Source: Patescibacteria group bacterium
GTDB lineage: Bacteria > Patescibacteriota > Patescibacteriia > 2-12-FULL-60-25
DNA length: 64,000 nt
Direction of reading: 5' to 3'
NCBI GenBank assembly: GCA_018061025.1
Contig: JAGOUY010000005.1
Coordinates: forward strand, 11,377-75,376
Both the position numbers and the translations under genes were made by a program. Below, one piece after another: positions 11,266 to 35,292 of this stretch. The number at the start of each line of letters is the position of its first letter. Positions within the stretch are counted from its first letter, which is position 1. The notes below the pieces were generated by a model, which was not told the origin of the DNA, made no database searches, and was given only the letters and a program-made list of their open reading frames with translations.

Positions 11266-12393
11266 ATGACGGGAGATCACGCTACCAACGAGGGGTTTGA
11301 GCTTAAAGATCACTTGCGGCTGGACGAAGCGTCCAACGGAGCACCGCAGATGCTTGGTGGCCAGCCTGCTCCTGCCTGGCCGGATTACGCTTCTCTTCTT
11401 CGCGTGTACGAGATTCTTTCGCTCCACTCGCAAGAGCGTGACCAGGGACTCCCTTTCGTGGCCAACCCTCTTACGATCTTGGCTGACGAGGAACATGCGG
11501 AACAATTTCTCACCGCGCTGCATGCGCGCCGCTGCATCCTCCTGCGTGAAGATGATGACGAGTCATTGCCGGAGCGAGCGCTTATCATTCAGCCTCCTAC
11601 CGAACAGGACCACGTCTACCCTCTTCGTATTCTTCTTTCGGAGGAGGACATGGCAGAGATCAATGCCATGCCCACCGTCTTGGACGGCAATAAAGATTCA
11701 CGCTGTCTCGTGAATGGGGTTGAGGTGGCCGAGGAGGGAGATGATGTAGACTCAGATGATGGAGGGGTGCCTTCTCCCGATGCTAATGCACATATACGAG
11801 TCATGCATGATGCGCGTGCCGCTCTCAGTGCCATGATCCAGTGCTGCCTTGAAGCGCTTAAGCGTGCCGCAGATGATGACGGTACCGTTCTCTGGCCCCT
11901 TCGGGTGATCGAAGACGTACTCGCCCAGATGAACCTTCCTGCTGGAACAGCTGTCGAGTTTATCAATACCCTTATTCATGAGGGATACGCATTCACTGCA
12001 CCGGGATATGCAGCCTTGCAATTGATTCAGCCTTCAGCGCCTGCGGAGCGTACGCGTATGGCAGAGGATGATGCGGCGGTAGACGAAGAAAAAACTGTCA
12101 TTCCTCAACAAGTGGTCGCCGGCAACGGCCTGGTACGATTTCGTGGCAAAACCTTTCCACCCTCTCTTCTGCCCGCGTGTATTCGTCTTCTCAGAGAACA
12201 CGCGACACCGGAAGGAATCGTTTATGATTACATTACGCTGATCAAACGCCTGTTGGCCGAGCACGAGGTCGATCCAGGACGGTATCTTGGGGTGATTAAA
12301 AAGCTGAGAGCGGATGCGGCGATTATTCACTTTGATCGTAGAGGATATATCGTCATCTCTTTGCCAGCAAAACCCGGACTTTCTCGAGTATAA
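11266..12393 (+). CDS. hypothetical acidic protein (375 aa)
   Basis: Track ORF with D/E-rich tracts. No family recognised. Confidence 0.5.
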   Translation: MTGDHATNEGFELKDHLRLDEASNGAPQMLGGQPAPAWPDYASLLRVYEILSLHSQERDQGLPFVANPLTILADEEHAEQFLTALHARRCILLREDDDESLPERALIIQPPTEQDHVYPLRILLSEEDMAEINAMPTVLDGNKDSRCLVNGVEVAEEGDDVDSDDGGVPSPDANAHIRVMHDARAALSAMIQCCLEALKRAADDDGTVLWPLRVIEDVLAQMNLPAGTAVEFINTLIHEGYAFTAPGYAALQLIQPSAPAERTRMAEDDAAVDEEKTVIPQQVVAGNGLVRFRGKTFPPSLLPACIRLLREHATPEGIVYDYITLIKRLLAEHEVDPGRYLGVIKKLRADAAIIHFDRRGYIVISLPAKPGLSRV

Positions 12394-25614: not shown

Positions 25615-25639
25615 GTCATTCCCGCGAAGGCGGGAACCC
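25615..25639. repeat. 25-nt hairpin repeat GTCATTCCCGCGAAGGCGGGAACCC; exact inverted copy at 55162-55186
   Basis: TTCCCGC gaag GCGGGAA hairpin. The reverse complement occurs exactly at 55162-55186. Confidence 0.85.
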
Positions 25640-25667
25640 AGCCTCGATCGGCCGGATCGATAAATGG

Positions 25668-25860
25668 TTGGATTGTGATATATAGGCGATGGGCCAGTCA
25701 GTATGCGAACTTTTTTCGTTACGCCCCTCGCATTCCGCCGGGAGCTCTTTGTGGCGGACCGGAGCCGAAACCTGCAGTCCGCAATCATGTGCAACGGTTT
25801 CGTCTCCTTGCTCAAACACGCGTAACGAAAAAAGTTCGCATACTGACTGGCCCTAGATGG
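25668..25860 (+). ncRNA. hairpin element copy 1 (conserved flanks, 34-bp perfect closing stem, 95-nt three-way-junction core)
   Basis: 5' flank is TTGGATTGTGATATATAGGCGAT. Stem 25691-25724 pairs perfectly with 25820-25853. 3' flank is TAGATGG. The core is homologous to copies 2 and 3, with compensatory changes. Confidence 0.6.
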
Positions 25861-25898
25861 TGTGAGGTGGGGAGGGATCGGGCTTCACGTTACGAGAT

Positions 25899-26279
25899 TT
25901 ACGCCTGCCCCTTATATACAACTGACGTTTTTCGTCTTGCCTTAGGGTTTTTGCGGGGAGTTGGGGGGGCTTTGAGGGCTTCGGGGATTTTTTCGAAGGC
26001 GCGTTTTACGGAGGCGACGAGGGTTTGGTATTCGGTGGTGGTGGCTTCGGGTTTGGCGATGAAGAGGACATCCATCTTTAGGGGCCAAAGAGGGCGGGTG
26101 AGGTGGAGGGCTTCACGGAGGCGGCGTTTGACGCGGTTGCGGGCGACGGCGGTTTTGAAAATTTTAGCGCTCGCGACAAAGCCGATTTTGGTGGCCTCTT
26201 GGCTCTGGCGGAAGCGGAGGGTAAAAAATGGGCCAAAAACAACGCGCCCCCTCTGAGAGAGGAGGGCGAAGTCGCGCAT
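25899..26279 (-). CDS. rnpA: ribonuclease P protein component
   Basis: Start re-set to MRDFALLSQRG (ATG 26279-26277). KTAVARNRVKRRLREAL is the RnpA RNR motif. The track ORF runs on upstream through rpmH. Confidence 0.85.
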   Translation of the reverse strand: MRDFALLSQRGRVVFGPFFTLRFRQSQEATKIGFVASAKIFKTAVARNRVKRRLREALHLTRPLWPLKMDVLFIAKPEATTTEYQTLVASVKRAFEKIPEALKAPPTPRKNPKARRKTSVVYKGQA

Positions 26280-26313
26280 GCGGCGCAGGCGATCAGTGCG
26301 TGGGAGCACGGGA

Positions 26314-26478
26314 TTAACGCTTGTTGACCTTGGCCGTTTTAATGGCGATGCGTTTGCGGCCTTTGGCGCGACGGCGAGAGAGAACTTCGCGACCGTCAGC
26401 CGTCTGCATGCGAGCACGAAAACCGTGAACGCGGGCGCGTCGGCGCTTTTTGGGCTGGTAGGTTCGTTTGGTAGCCAT
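26314..26478 (-). CDS. rpmH: 50S ribosomal protein L34
   Basis: Below the track threshold. Reads [54 protein letters not shown]. Confidence 0.95.
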
Positions 26479-26557
26479 AAGAATGGGAGTACTCTAGGAT
26501 ATTTATTTGGTTTTGGCAAGGTCTCTCCCCGTAAAATCCCCATGGTTTTTGATAAGC

Positions 26558-26595
26558 TGTGGATAAACTGTTGGTTTTTCCACGGGTTATCCACA
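26558..26595. promoter_or_regulatory. DnaA boxes upstream of dnaA
   Basis: TGTGGATAA at 26558-26566 is the perfect reverse complement of TTATCCACA. TTTTCCACg is at 26576-84. TTATCCACA at 26587-26595 is a perfect match. Confidence 0.75.
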
Positions 26596-26642
26596 TGTTT
26601 GACAATGTGATGCAGGATTGAAAGTATCCAGCATATAAACCT

Positions 26643-28043
26643 ATGGACTTGCAAGCACTTTGGCAGTCTGCCCTCGGTGAGATCGAGCTCACCTTATCTA
26701 AGGCCAATTTTACGACCTGGTTTCGCAATACCTTCATTAGTTCGTATGAAAATGGACGGATCGTAGTGGCGGTGCCAAATACGTTTACAAAATCTTGGCT
26801 GGAGCGCAAATACCATGATGCAATTGCAAAAGCGTTGCGTTCGGCCTGTCCGCAACCGATCCGAGAAATCCACTATCGTGTCGAGGTACGCAATACAACG
26901 GTACTTCCGATTGAGCATTTAGCCGAACCGGCTCCTTCTCCCGGCATGGAACAGGAAATGAGCCAGGCTTCGGGGGCGGAGGGATCTTTTGAGCCGACCA
27001 CTCGTGCGGCAGAGCTAGGGCTTAACCCACGCTATACCTTTCCGCAGTTTATTGTGGGGAAAAATAATGAGTTGGCTCATGCGGCCTGTATGGCGGTGTC
27101 GGCAAAGCCGGGGCAAGCGTACAATCCTTTATTTATTTATGGAGGGGTTGGGATGGGAAAGACCCATTTACTGCAGGCGATCGGGCATCATGTCTGCCGG
27201 GACAACAATAATGCCAAGGTGCAGTATGTGACCTGTGAACGATTTACGAATGAGTTTATCCAAGCGGTACGGAGTGGGGCGGCGTCGGATTTTAAGGATC
27301 GTTACCGAACGGTGGATGTGCTTTTGATTGATGATATTCAGTTTTTGACGGGAAAAGAAGGGACGCAGGAGGAATTTTTTCATACGTTTAACACCCTACA
27401 CCAGAACAATAAACAGATCGTCATTGCGTCTGACCGCCCACCAAAGGATATCCAGACCCTAGAAAGCCGTCTTCAGTCGCGCTTTGAGTGGGGCATGATG
27501 ATTGATATCACCAAACCGGATTTTGAAACGCGGGTAGCCATTTTGGAGGCTAAGTCACGTGAGAAGAGTTACCCGCTTTCGACGGAAATCTTGCATATGA
27601 TGGCGGGAGCGATCCAGTCGAACATTCGTGAATTAGAAGGGGCGCTCAACAAGATCATTGCCTACCATCAGTTTAAAAATATCCAGCCTAGCTCGGGCTC
27701 TATCCAGCCTTTGCTCCAGAGCTTTACGCCGACCATTACAAAACGAACGGTGAGTCCACGCTTATTGATTGAAGCGGTACGCGGACACTATGACATCACG
27801 CATGAGCAAATCGTCGGCAAAAGTCGTGAACAACGGTTTGCCTTGCCACGCCAAATCGCGATGTATCTTCTACGCGAAGAGACAAAATGCTCTTTCCCCA
27901 CCATTGGGGATCATTTGGGCGGACGCGATCACACAACAGCCATGCATGCGTGCGAAAAGATTACACACCTTATCCAGAACGATACACAGGTGAAACAGGA
28001 TATCACGCTTATTTTAGAGCATCTCTATAACTCTGCGGCGTAG
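26643..28043 (+). CDS. dnaA: chromosomal replication initiator DnaA
   Basis: Walker A GGVGMGKTHLL and DDIQFL. C-terminal DNA-binding signature IGDHLGGRDHTTAMHA. Confidence 0.97.
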   Translation: MDLQALWQSALGEIELTLSKANFTTWFRNTFISSYENGRIVVAVPNTFTKSWLERKYHDAIAKALRSACPQPIREIHYRVEVRNTTVLPIEHLAEPAPSPGMEQEMSQASGAEGSFEPTTRAAELGLNPRYTFPQFIVGKNNELAHAACMAVSAKPGQAYNPLFIYGGVGMGKTHLLQAIGHHVCRDNNNAKVQYVTCERFTNEFIQAVRSGAASDFKDRYRTVDVLLIDDIQFLTGKEGTQEEFFHTFNTLHQNNKQIVIASDRPPKDIQTLESRLQSRFEWGMMIDITKPDFETRVAILEAKSREKSYPLSTEILHMMAGAIQSNIRELEGALNKIIAYHQFKNIQPSSGSIQPLLQSFTPTITKRTVSPRLLIEAVRGHYDITHEQIVGKSREQRFALPRQIAMYLLREETKCSFPTIGDHLGGRDHTTAMHACEKITHLIQNDTQVKQDITLILEHLYNSAA

Positions 28044-35012: not shown

Positions 35013-35197
35013 ATATATAGGCGATGGGCTCCGTTTGTCCGTTGTTTTTCTCCCGACTGAACTCGCATTCCACCACGAGCTCTTTATGGTGGACCGGAGC
35101 CGATGCCTGCAACCGCAAATCGAGCGCAACGGCATCGTCTCCTTGCTCAGACAGCAGTCGGGAGAAAAACAACGGACAAACGGAGCCCTAGATGAGG
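35013..35197 (+). ncRNA. hairpin element copy 2
   Basis: 5' flank ATATATAGGCGAT. Stem 35026-35059 pairs perfectly with 35155-35188 (34 bp). 3' flank TAGATGAGG. Confidence 0.6.
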
Positions 35198-35292
35198 AGA
35201 AAAGGGGAAATAAGTACGGGGCTTCACGGATTATGGGGAGTTTGTTAGGATCATGACGCTTACAATTCGATTTGCGACGACGACGGGGCTGT

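Follow-up and report, generated by a model that had tools for sequence, protein, structure and literature searches.

In this study, a family of long palindromic elements was analysed in a 64,000-nt stretch from a Patescibacteria group bacterium (GenBank assembly GCA_018061025.1, contig JAGOUY010000005.1, positions 11,377 to 75,376 of the forward strand), the whole of which is referred to here as the window. The family is real, undescribed and strongly structured: conserved junctions enclose a perfectly paired stem, and the stem closes one of at least five different cores. We give about an even chance to the reading that it is a palindromic repeat cassette, restricted to one clade of Patescibacteria, that spreads and exchanges its cargo by recombination through its conserved parts. 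It is not a classical miniature inverted-repeat transposable element (MITE); the arms are unconserved, the asymmetric junctions flank the hairpin on the outside, a clean target duplication is missing, and the window yielded no transposase. As far as sequence can tell, its nearest kin in behaviour would be palindromic repeats like the Rickettsia palindromic elements (RPE) and the Correia elements, among which it would be an unusual variant. A sequence-only reading of the window had presented four copies as a structured-RNA-like family with hypervariable stems. Its description was largely right; the interpretation as RNA is unproven, and "hypervariable" was an overstatement.

The four copies in the window

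The 16-mer ATATATAGGCGATGGG occurs exactly four times in the window, always on the + strand; at up to 3 mismatches, 0.49 matches are expected in shuffled sequences. All four + strand copies were recovered where the sequence-only reading had placed them. As it had also claimed, the flanks are conserved: common to the copies are the 5′ junction TATATAGGCGAT, a stem that opens with GGG and closes with CCC, the 3′ junction TAGATG and a purine tail. The closing stems, described as flawless, are indeed 100% Watson-Crick in all four copies, with lengths of 34, 34, 35 and 30 bp. Fold energies of the four elements ranged from −73 to −108 kcal/mol (z approximately −14 against dinucleotide shuffles). Copies 1–3 have a common core, reported as 95 nt and found to be 94–95 nt; copy 4 has a different core of 60 nt, which had not been recognised as one of at least five alternatives carried by the same scaffold. 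The parts of the four copies are as follows.

25668..25690, + strand: conserved 5′ junction of copy 1, TTGGATTGTGATATATAGGCGAT, an A/T-rich hexamer plus AGGCGAT, ending at the stem base
25691..25853, + strand: copy 1, type A element with a 34-bp perfect stem (25691–25724 / 25820–25853) and a 95-nt three-way-junction core (25725–25819); covariance model score 161.9 bits
25854..25882, + strand: 3′ junction TAGATG and G-rich purine tail of copy 1
35013..35025, + strand: 5′ junction of copy 2, ATATATAGGCGAT, without the TTGGATnGTG part
35026..35188, + strand: copy 2, type A element with a 34-bp perfect stem (35026–35059 / 35155–35188) and a 95-nt core; covariance model score 189.7 bits; tRNA-Cys lies 198 nt downstream
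35189..35214, + strand: TAGATG and purine tail of copy 2
41301..41460, + strand: REP-like small hairpin modules R0, R1 and R3 ahead of copy 3
41466..41488, + strand: 5′ junction of copy 3, TTGGATAGTGATATATAGGCGAT
41489..41652, + strand: copy 3, type A element with a 35-bp perfect stem (41489–41523 / 41618–41652) and a 94-nt core
41653..41677, + strand: TAGATG and purine tail of copy 3, followed by a T-rich tract (approximately 41697–41709)
43129..43151, + strand: 5′ junction of copy 4, TTGGATAGTGATATATAGGCGAT
43152..43271, + strand: copy 4, type B element of exactly 120 nt with a 30-bp perfect stem (43152–43181 / 43242–43271) and a 60-nt core of two small hairpins, upstream of the tRNA-Arg(CCT) promoter
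43272..43299, + strand: TAGAAG and G-rich purine tail of copy 4

The junction variant of copy 2 is also present in its orthologue in L004 (L numbers are used for the loci and relatives compared), and the junction core TAGGCGAT is kept even in the 77% relative L034. A 280-aa holA-like open reading frame (ORF; 41737–42579) begins 84 nt downstream of copy 3. Modules related to R0, R1 and R3 also precede copies 1 and 4 and occur alone elsewhere.

One scaffold with alternative cores

Approximately 35 copies were comparable across three related metagenome-assembled genomes (MAGs) and a few relatives. In the main clade the 5′ junction is TTGGATnGTGATATATAGGCGAT, the minimal conserved part of which is an A/T-rich hexamer followed by (A)GGCGAT, reaching up to the stem. 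The stem consists of a GGGCUC base, approximately 14 free positions, a U5–6 tract at positions 21–25 and a semi-conserved inner part of 10 bp; its 5′ arm is pyrimidine-rich (43% T, 13% A) and is mirrored by the 3′ arm. The scaffold ends with the UAGAUG junction and a G-rich purine tail of 20–30 nt. Mean pairwise identity was 97% in the stem base, 36% at arm positions 7–20, 90% in the T-run, 56% in the inner part and 82% in the core. Stems are 33–35 bp long in type A, in which whole elements measure 162–169 nt, and 30 bp in type B, all four copies of which are exactly 120 nt. The cores found within this one scaffold, at least five in number, are listed below.

Type A core: three-way junction, window copies 1–3
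Type B core: two small hairpins, copy 4
Type C core: approximately 110 nt, in L011, L012 and L034
Type D core: in L034
Reduced core forms: in L039 and L040

Cores A to D all contain the motif UGCUC. In type A, the loop sequence with the highest conservation is GCTCTTT (alignment A1, columns 55–70), which resembles the 5′ half of boxA.

Insertion of a core into pre-existing different palindromes (YPAL-like) was rejected, the GGGCUC base, the fixed T-run and the inner part being common to the stems. Peptide coding was rejected as well: with element lengths of 162–169 nt, the ATG in GGCGATGGG and the TAG in CCCTAGATG are not in frame, and a small ORF in one core was not conserved. By inspection, the tail is no mirror of the 3′ arm, and an intramolecular purine triplex of tail and stem was dismissed.

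Covariation and pairing

Twenty-two type A copies were aligned, and the consensus fold given by RNAalifold had 58 pairs. Double-sided changes were seen in 33 of these pairs (26 of 34 in the long stem, 2 of 6 in inner helix P2 and 5 of 10 in inner helix P3), bearing out the compensatory changes first noticed in the two inner helices of the window copies; the conserved C mismatch pointed out at the same time is present as a C.U mismatch in P3. Cells were paired in 97.4% of cases, compared with 78% in column shuffles and 41–49% when partners were slid by 1–3 columns. Covariation proves that the pairing is kept by selection or correction; it leaves undefined whether the molecule concerned is RNA or DNA. 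Since inverted-repeat covariation is equally expected for a DNA palindrome, RNA nature is not shown by this evidence, and what stands of the proposed structured-RNA family is a real family with a covarying three-way-junction core.

A G-U pair in copy 1 had been taken to indicate that the RNA is read from the + strand. Across the 22 copies, G.U pairs (approximately 14) were no commoner than A.C pairs (approximately 16); this argument therefore fails, and wobble-pair asymmetry is uninformative as evidence of strand. In the long stem alone the numbers were 7 and 2–3. Stem pairs were approximately 98% Watson-Crick, wobble pairs being far scarcer than in typical functional RNAs.

Hypervariability of the stems holds among paralogues, as seen at arm positions 7–20, and not among orthologues. 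Orthologous stems were 72–100% identical, as compared with 80–94% for neighbouring genes; the stems thus diverge about like their neighbours and are not diversifying. Copy 3 and its orthologue in L026 differ at 7–8 positions per arm, and both are perfectly paired.

Distribution and database searches

When the 5′ junction was scanned against species-representative genomes, the element was found in three MAGs only, one labelled Patescibacteria and two labelled "uncultured Gammaproteobacteria"; the few remaining matches were chance matches without hairpins. At least 10–13 copies per MAG were present in the sampled contigs, and 4 lie in the 64-kb window. The MAGs JBPOJM01, CAZTQP01 and CAZIQG01 originate from samples of groundwater type. 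A scan of JGI metagenomes gave exactly one additional match. Relatives at 58% and 52% protein identity had no copies in approximately 20 kb each. In IMG/VR no family member was found, all matches to the flank being due to chance and without a hairpin, and a phage origin was rejected. Among 5.8 billion proteins, only two ORFs translate through the core and none has an in-frame type A insertion; an ORF called through copy 2 has an identical counterpart in NCBI assembly GCA_017992815.1.

The sequence-only reading had assigned the elements to no named RNA class, and Rfam (release 15) agreed: at gathering scores, only 4 tRNAs were matched in the window. At E ≤ 1, nothing was matched over any core type in five loci, and when the filters were relaxed as far as possible for single elements, sub-threshold miRNA-precursor models of eukaryotes were all that appeared, on both strands. 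Membership in a known RNA family was rejected on these grounds. Pfam searches of approximately 40 window ORFs showed no transposase, reverse transcriptase (RT), Cas or TnpB, as had been reported, nor was there a candidate for an HUH/Y1 transposase, IntI, another recombinase or Argonaute/Tas among them.

Gain, loss and exchange of cores

Syntenic loci were fetched from a graded series of relatives with the holA-like protein. Between polA and the holA-like gene, a type A element is present in the window and L026 and a type C element in L034, and the site is empty in L039, L036 and L037. This spacer measures 463 nt in the window, where it holds copy 3 and other hairpin modules, and 268 nt in L034; without the element it measures 4, 57 and 11 nt in L039 (72%), L036 (58%) and L037 (52%), respectively. 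Upstream of tRNA-Arg(CCT), three different cores were found (in the window, L034 and L039), L036 and L041 are empty, and the purine tail comes along with the hairpin. Orthologues at the dnaX site have core B or core C, and at the ABC-F gene site core A or core B is found despite 94% identical flanks. The intergenic regions are mosaics that include other small hairpin repeats, and the relatives have short spacers.

In L034, the type D core parts CTTGCCGCATRG and GCTTCGAAC are repeated just outside the element (11592–11690), and a junction-like stretch without a hairpin, TATATAGGAGGGGAGGAAAA, lies directly upstream of the tRNA-Arg −35 box (11700–11735). These may be remnants of an earlier cassette.

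The 64% relative L040 has a 114-nt member with a 28-bp perfect stem in frame inside polA (positions 1775–1888; GCA_964358965.1, contig CAYHRB010000045.1). The encoded PolA carries a 40-aa insertion in a surface loop region, which is missing from five other PolA proteins. This copy resembles type A in its stem base, T8 tract and junction motifs GAACUCG/CUCAGACAG. Stop trinucleotides on the forward strand are depleted (104, where dinucleotide shuffles give 151.6 ± 8.2); within the type A core, 12 are forward and 60 reverse, in copies that are not independent. Three chimeric copies (L020 3149–3313, L021 4724–4888 and L028 879–1040) combine arms of two different elements, the switch between them being located within the conserved core. 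Core swapping, gain, loss and the in-frame polA copy together point to a mobile or recombining repeat with no less force than to a dedicated RNA gene.

Proposed mode of spread and points against it

In the recombining-cassette reading, a fixed scaffold consisting of 5′ junction, perfect stem, 3′ junction and purine tail would carry one of at least five cores, and cassettes would be gained, lost, recombined and exchanged between copies in promoter-proximal intergenic DNA. The likely route would be homologous recombination through the conserved junctions and cores, RecA and ComEC both being encoded, and some further mobilising enzyme may possibly help the spread. Perfect pairing would be preserved chiefly in the DNA, where one arm of a long inverted repeat would correct the other and copies would turn over, and selection for hairpin formation would add to its maintenance. 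If transcribed on the + strand, an element is predicted to fold into a hairpin of great stability that closes a three-way junction; this structure would be an ideal RNase III substrate. By analogy to Correia, ERIC and REP sequences, such a hairpin would most plausibly punctuate or stabilise transcripts.

Several findings weigh against this reading. Conservation is lowest in the terminal inverted repeats (36%) and highest in the core (82%); a classical MITE would show the reverse, and the pattern argues that the core sequence is under selection. The 58 unpaired core positions are still 78% identical, and P2 and P3 covary; these features fit a functional RNA or a single-stranded form, and the conserved, covarying core argues for selection acting on a single-stranded form of some kind, be it RNA or DNA. 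The window showed no candidate transposase, RT, HUH enzyme or recombinase. A clean target-site duplication is lacking; GATG is repeated at both junctions in the main clade, and imperfect direct repeats of 7–10 nt flank the L039 and L040 copies. No empty site with both junctions was found, the sole candidate being the junction-like stretch in L034 mentioned above. All three chimeric copies come from one MAG (JBPOJM01) and are possible assembly artefacts. The polA member of L040 is distant, and its model score is largely that of the stem (53.7 bits on the + strand versus 40.6 bits on the − strand).

Comparison with known systems

RPE are dispersed repeats of 105–146 bp in a reduced-genome bacterium, with long predicted stem-loops, located both between genes and in frame within conserved genes (PMC2229807). 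The L040 polA member of 114 nt with its 40-aa in-frame insertion and the depletion of forward stops are RPE-like features, the insertion that leaves the ORF open being a single intragenic case in a distant relative. The inverted repeats of RPE, however, have approximately 12 contiguous bp and are conserved within the family, whereas the present elements have perfect stems of 30–35 bp that are unlike between copies and surround a conserved, covarying core. The likeness is one of behaviour and not of membership, the host belonging to a different phylum.

Correia elements of Neisseria (CREE/NEMIS) are similar in being approximately 100–155 bp long and multi-copy, with an inverted repeat around a conserved core, and in lying upstream of genes at positions that differ between strains. 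They differ in their inverted repeats of approximately 24–26 bp, which are sequence-conserved, start with TA and are accompanied by a TA duplication, and in having a longer form with an IHF site; here, the arms are unconserved, the junctions are asymmetric and outside the hairpin, and several unrelated cores occur per scaffold. CREEs can create promoters at their ends, and the hairpins in their transcripts are bound or cleaved by RNase III; promoter creation, RNase III cleavage and in-frame gene fusion are all known from small bacterial repeats (PMC2649163, PMC2229807). Promoter activity and RNase III cleavage of the Correia type are putative for the present family, by analogy only.

The family agrees with classical MITEs in that many short, non-coding copies are dispersed and orthologous sites may be filled or empty, but it has no sequence-conserved terminal repeats, only the 6-bp base reaching 97%, with 36% in the arms and 82% in the core. 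It resembles REP/BIME/REPIN sequences in the intergenic mosaics of hairpin modules in fixed orders, in the preserved pairing of arms and, by analogy, in possible effects at the DNA and mRNA levels. REP sequences, in contrast, are imperfect, sequence-conserved palindromes of approximately 20–40 nt with a GTAG-type tetranucleotide and a cognate RAYT gene; the arms here are unconserved and no Y1/HUH transposase was matched in the window.

Intervening sequences and processing stalks of 23S rRNA likewise have a long near-perfect stem with variable content at a fixed site, content that a close relative may lack or have in another form. Their stem serves as a substrate of RNase III, a property that is predicted for the present stems. 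They lie within rRNA genes, whereas the present elements occupy promoter-proximal spacers of many genes and have conserved external junctions. Integron attC sites are comparable in that structure is conserved and sequence is free, only the stem base being kept around a variable, sometimes branched centre; unlike them, the present elements have perfect stems with a GGGCTC/GAGCCC base, lack R″/R′ boxes, extrahelical bases, an integrase and a cassette array, and are bordered by syntenic housekeeping genes. Retron msr/msd does not apply, as no RT domain was found in the window ORFs, the closing stem is 30–35 bp and the copies are dispersed. The copies also differ from CRISPR, TIGR and other guide arrays in being single and dispersed, with arms that have no targets in 250 kb of these genomes or in IMG/VR.

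Position relative to genes, promoters and terminators

Elements of the main clade are always intergenic and face the next gene, with a same-strand ORF mostly beginning 40–120 nt downstream; co-orientation with the downstream gene also holds at 7 sites between divergent genes. The downstream genes are functionally unrelated (dnaA, dnaX, alaS, greA, tdk, genes for an ABC-F ATPase, a recombinase and the holA-like protein, tRNA-Cys and tRNA-Arg). Two window copies precede tRNAs, and a tRNA-linked element was considered and rejected, as only a few of approximately 30 copies do so. Several downstream genes have a promoter of their own after the element, for example TTGACG-17-TATACT ahead of tRNA-Arg.

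A sigma-70 scan did not call the 5′ junction, that of copy 1 included, a promoter, because it has no −35 element. The junction resembles the layout "−10, GGCG, ATG" found ahead of apparently leaderless genes of the same genomes. A T7/SP6-like promoter was considered for the nearly invariant 23-nt junction; no single-subunit RNA polymerase was found, and the alignment with SP6 was poor. A canonical terminator after the tail is clear in 2 of 31 copies only, and an intrinsic terminator formed by the T-run of the 5′ arm or located after the element is not supported. L026, the orthologue of copy 3, has a clear GC hairpin and T-run after the tail, and L003 has a weaker one.

Many genes in these genomes appear to be leaderless, with a −10-like hexamer, 5–7 nt that often read (G)GGCG, and ATG, without a Shine-Dalgarno sequence; such starts are seen at 41715–41739 of the window and at gene starts in L016, L010, L024 and L025. 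Canonical TTGACA-17-TATAAA/TATACT promoters occur ahead of the 23S rRNA, rpsT and tRNA-Arg genes.

Alternative readings

The main alternative, possible if unlikely, is that the family consists of stand-alone genes for small RNAs, all built on one scaffold of promoter, processing stalk and tail. The 5′ junction would be an extended −10-type promoter (TGnTATATA) with the start at the first G of the stem, the stem would be cut by RNase III as in rRNA precursors and pri-miRNAs, the released core RNA would act in trans, and the purine tail would end or stabilise the transcript. The likeness of the junction to the layout of apparently leaderless genes speaks for such a promoter, and variant hexamers (TATTAT, AAAATT and TAGGTT) keep their distance to the stem; yet a −35 element is lacking, none of the hexamers combines A at position 2 with T at position 6, and canonical promoters of the TTGACA-17-TATAAA/TATACT type do exist in these genomes. 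A core that is 82% conserved with covarying P2 and P3, and fixed stem lengths (33–35 bp for type A; for type B exactly 30 bp, with a total of exactly 120 nt in its four copies), also favour this reading. G.U pairs, on the other hand, are not favoured over A.C, a trans-acting RNA needs no 10-plus copies with different stems in a genome of approximately 1 Mb, and the cores replace each other at one site regardless of the neighbouring gene. The promoters that several downstream genes have after the element, and the GC hairpin and T-run in L026 (weaker in L003), count in favour as well, but a canonical terminator between the element and the next gene is present in only 2 of 31 copies, and one member lies within a coding sequence without either junction.

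The elements might also, by analogy to pri-miRNAs, be an expression and processing cassette with a fixed promoter, a measured stalk of 30–35 bp and any of at least five cores, spread by recombination, in which the stalk would be cut at the U-tract by RNase III or a clade-specific nuclease. We consider this rather unlikely; if true, ultra-small symbiotic bacteria would possess a new class of modular RNA gene, or a mobile element centred on RNA.

An improbable reading is that of a cis-acting 5′ leader, either for antitermination or loading of RNA polymerase of the rrn type, with GCUCUUU as a boxA-like signal, or as a regulator binding a protein or ligand. The elements always face the next gene, mostly 40–120 nt ahead of its start codon, precede tRNA genes too and are mostly without a terminator, all of which would suit a leader; the downstream genes, however, have no function in common, relatives express them without the element, different cores occur at the same site, and many of the genes have a promoter of their own between element and start codon. 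GCTCTTT is present in the P2 loop of 14 of the 22 type A copies, the UGCUC motif in cores A to D, and GGCTCTTTTCA in the 23S rRNA leader of the related MAG L009 (approximately 868–880, − strand). The likeness to boxA (GCUCUUUAACAA-like, bound by NusB/NusE) is limited to 7 nt, was noticed post hoc, varies between copies (GCTATTT, GCTGTTT, GTTCTTC) and as such is absent from types B and C. The 34-bp perfect stem cannot switch conformation and so provides no expression platform; neither an alternative-pairing platform nor a gene-specific function class, as expected of riboswitches and cis-regulators, was found.

It is very improbable that the elements are single-stranded DNA substrates of recombination or transposition recognised by structure, like attC with IntI or REP/REPIN and IS200/IS605 with HUH enzymes, in which case cleavage would take place at the conserved stem base and at the GATG of both junctions. 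Conservation of structure with sequence-free arms, sequence conservation being restricted to the 6-bp stem base and the junctions, speaks for such substrates, as do GATG at both junctions, content swapped at fixed sites and the location of all four window copies on the strand with positive GC skew. Against these stand the lack of an IntI, HUH or Y1 transposase match in the window and of attC R boxes (RYYYAAC/GTTRRRY), extrahelical bases or a cassette array, the neighbouring housekeeping genes in conserved synteny, and a 23-nt 5′ junction and purine tail that have no counterpart in those systems.

That the stems are guide or memory hairpin RNAs against phages, a host bacterium or the cell's own genes, for which the variable, perfectly paired 30–35 bp stems in a constant scaffold are the sole support, is extremely improbable: guides or antisense RNAs were rejected on absent targets, with no arm match outside the elements in 250 kb of these genomes (13-mers), none beyond chance in 3-kb flanks and, for two stems searched against IMG/VR, one chance-level match of 17–18 nt only, and, moreover, the arms are biased (43% T, 13% A) with a fixed T-run, unlike captured sequence, stem lineages are common to genomes at about the divergence of neighbouring genes, and no Argonaute or Cas was matched in the window.

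Implications

Genomes of Patescibacteria (the candidate phyla radiation, CPR) are approximately 1 Mb in size, with spacers that are usually very short. In one clade, the promoter-proximal spacers have become filled with modular hairpin repeats amounting to several hundred bases. The module of greatest size reverses the usual logic of MITEs: the core is conserved and covaries, the arms are sequence-free yet perfectly paired, and several cores are interchangeable within one scaffold. To our knowledge, almost nothing has been reported on repeats, promoters or RNA processing in Patescibacteria. If the elements are only selfish DNA, they provide a clear new example of RPE-/Correia-like elements and a useful strain marker. 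If the cores are functional RNAs, they would represent a new modular way to express and exchange small RNAs, and a natural system in which the upkeep of long perfect hairpins by template-switch correction can be compared with upkeep by selection.

Setting of the window and other observations

The window contains dnaA (26643–28043) and dnaN and represents the chromosome around dnaA of a Patescibacteria member; its other genes include those for trigger factor, PBP1A, Pol I, FtsK, RecA and ComEC. From approximately 4 kb to the end of the window, GC skew is strongly positive (0.1–0.39), even across − strand genes. This suggests a replication-strand effect and a location of all four elements on the G-rich strand.

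The approximately 780 nt between copy 1 and dnaA (25883–26642) hold no convincing gene, the ORFs there being without a Pfam match. Two perfect DnaA boxes (TTATCCACA), inverted, lie just upstream of dnaA (26558–26595).

Small GC-rich hairpin repeats of several families (CGTCATCCCGAACGAAGTC...GTGAGGGATCTCGCAGC, CCCCTCCTCCGGCGAGGAGGGG and CATTCCCGCGAAGGCGGGAA) were seen at 41301–41460, 42993–43100, 25617–25640, 1212, 22145, 35574 (− strand) and 55165 (− strand). They form mosaics of fixed order upstream of the elements and also occur alone on either strand, as in REP/BIME.

Approximately 60–300 nt downstream of the element, L006, L008 and L011 have a conserved stretch without an ORF, CATTTCCCCCTAAACGCGAAAACACACCCTGTAGAAGAGTGTGT...GGAGCGCTTGGAGGAGGGTGCGCC, which gave no Rfam match and may be another unannotated RNA.

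The sequence TGTTTCACGTGAAACA, which we take to be the ParB-binding parS consensus, is present in 13 perfect copies within 1.45 kb around tRNA-Ala (43548–44991), where 0.05 would be expected by chance. This unusually dense, centromere-like cluster is kept at the same place in L034, L036, L039 and L041.

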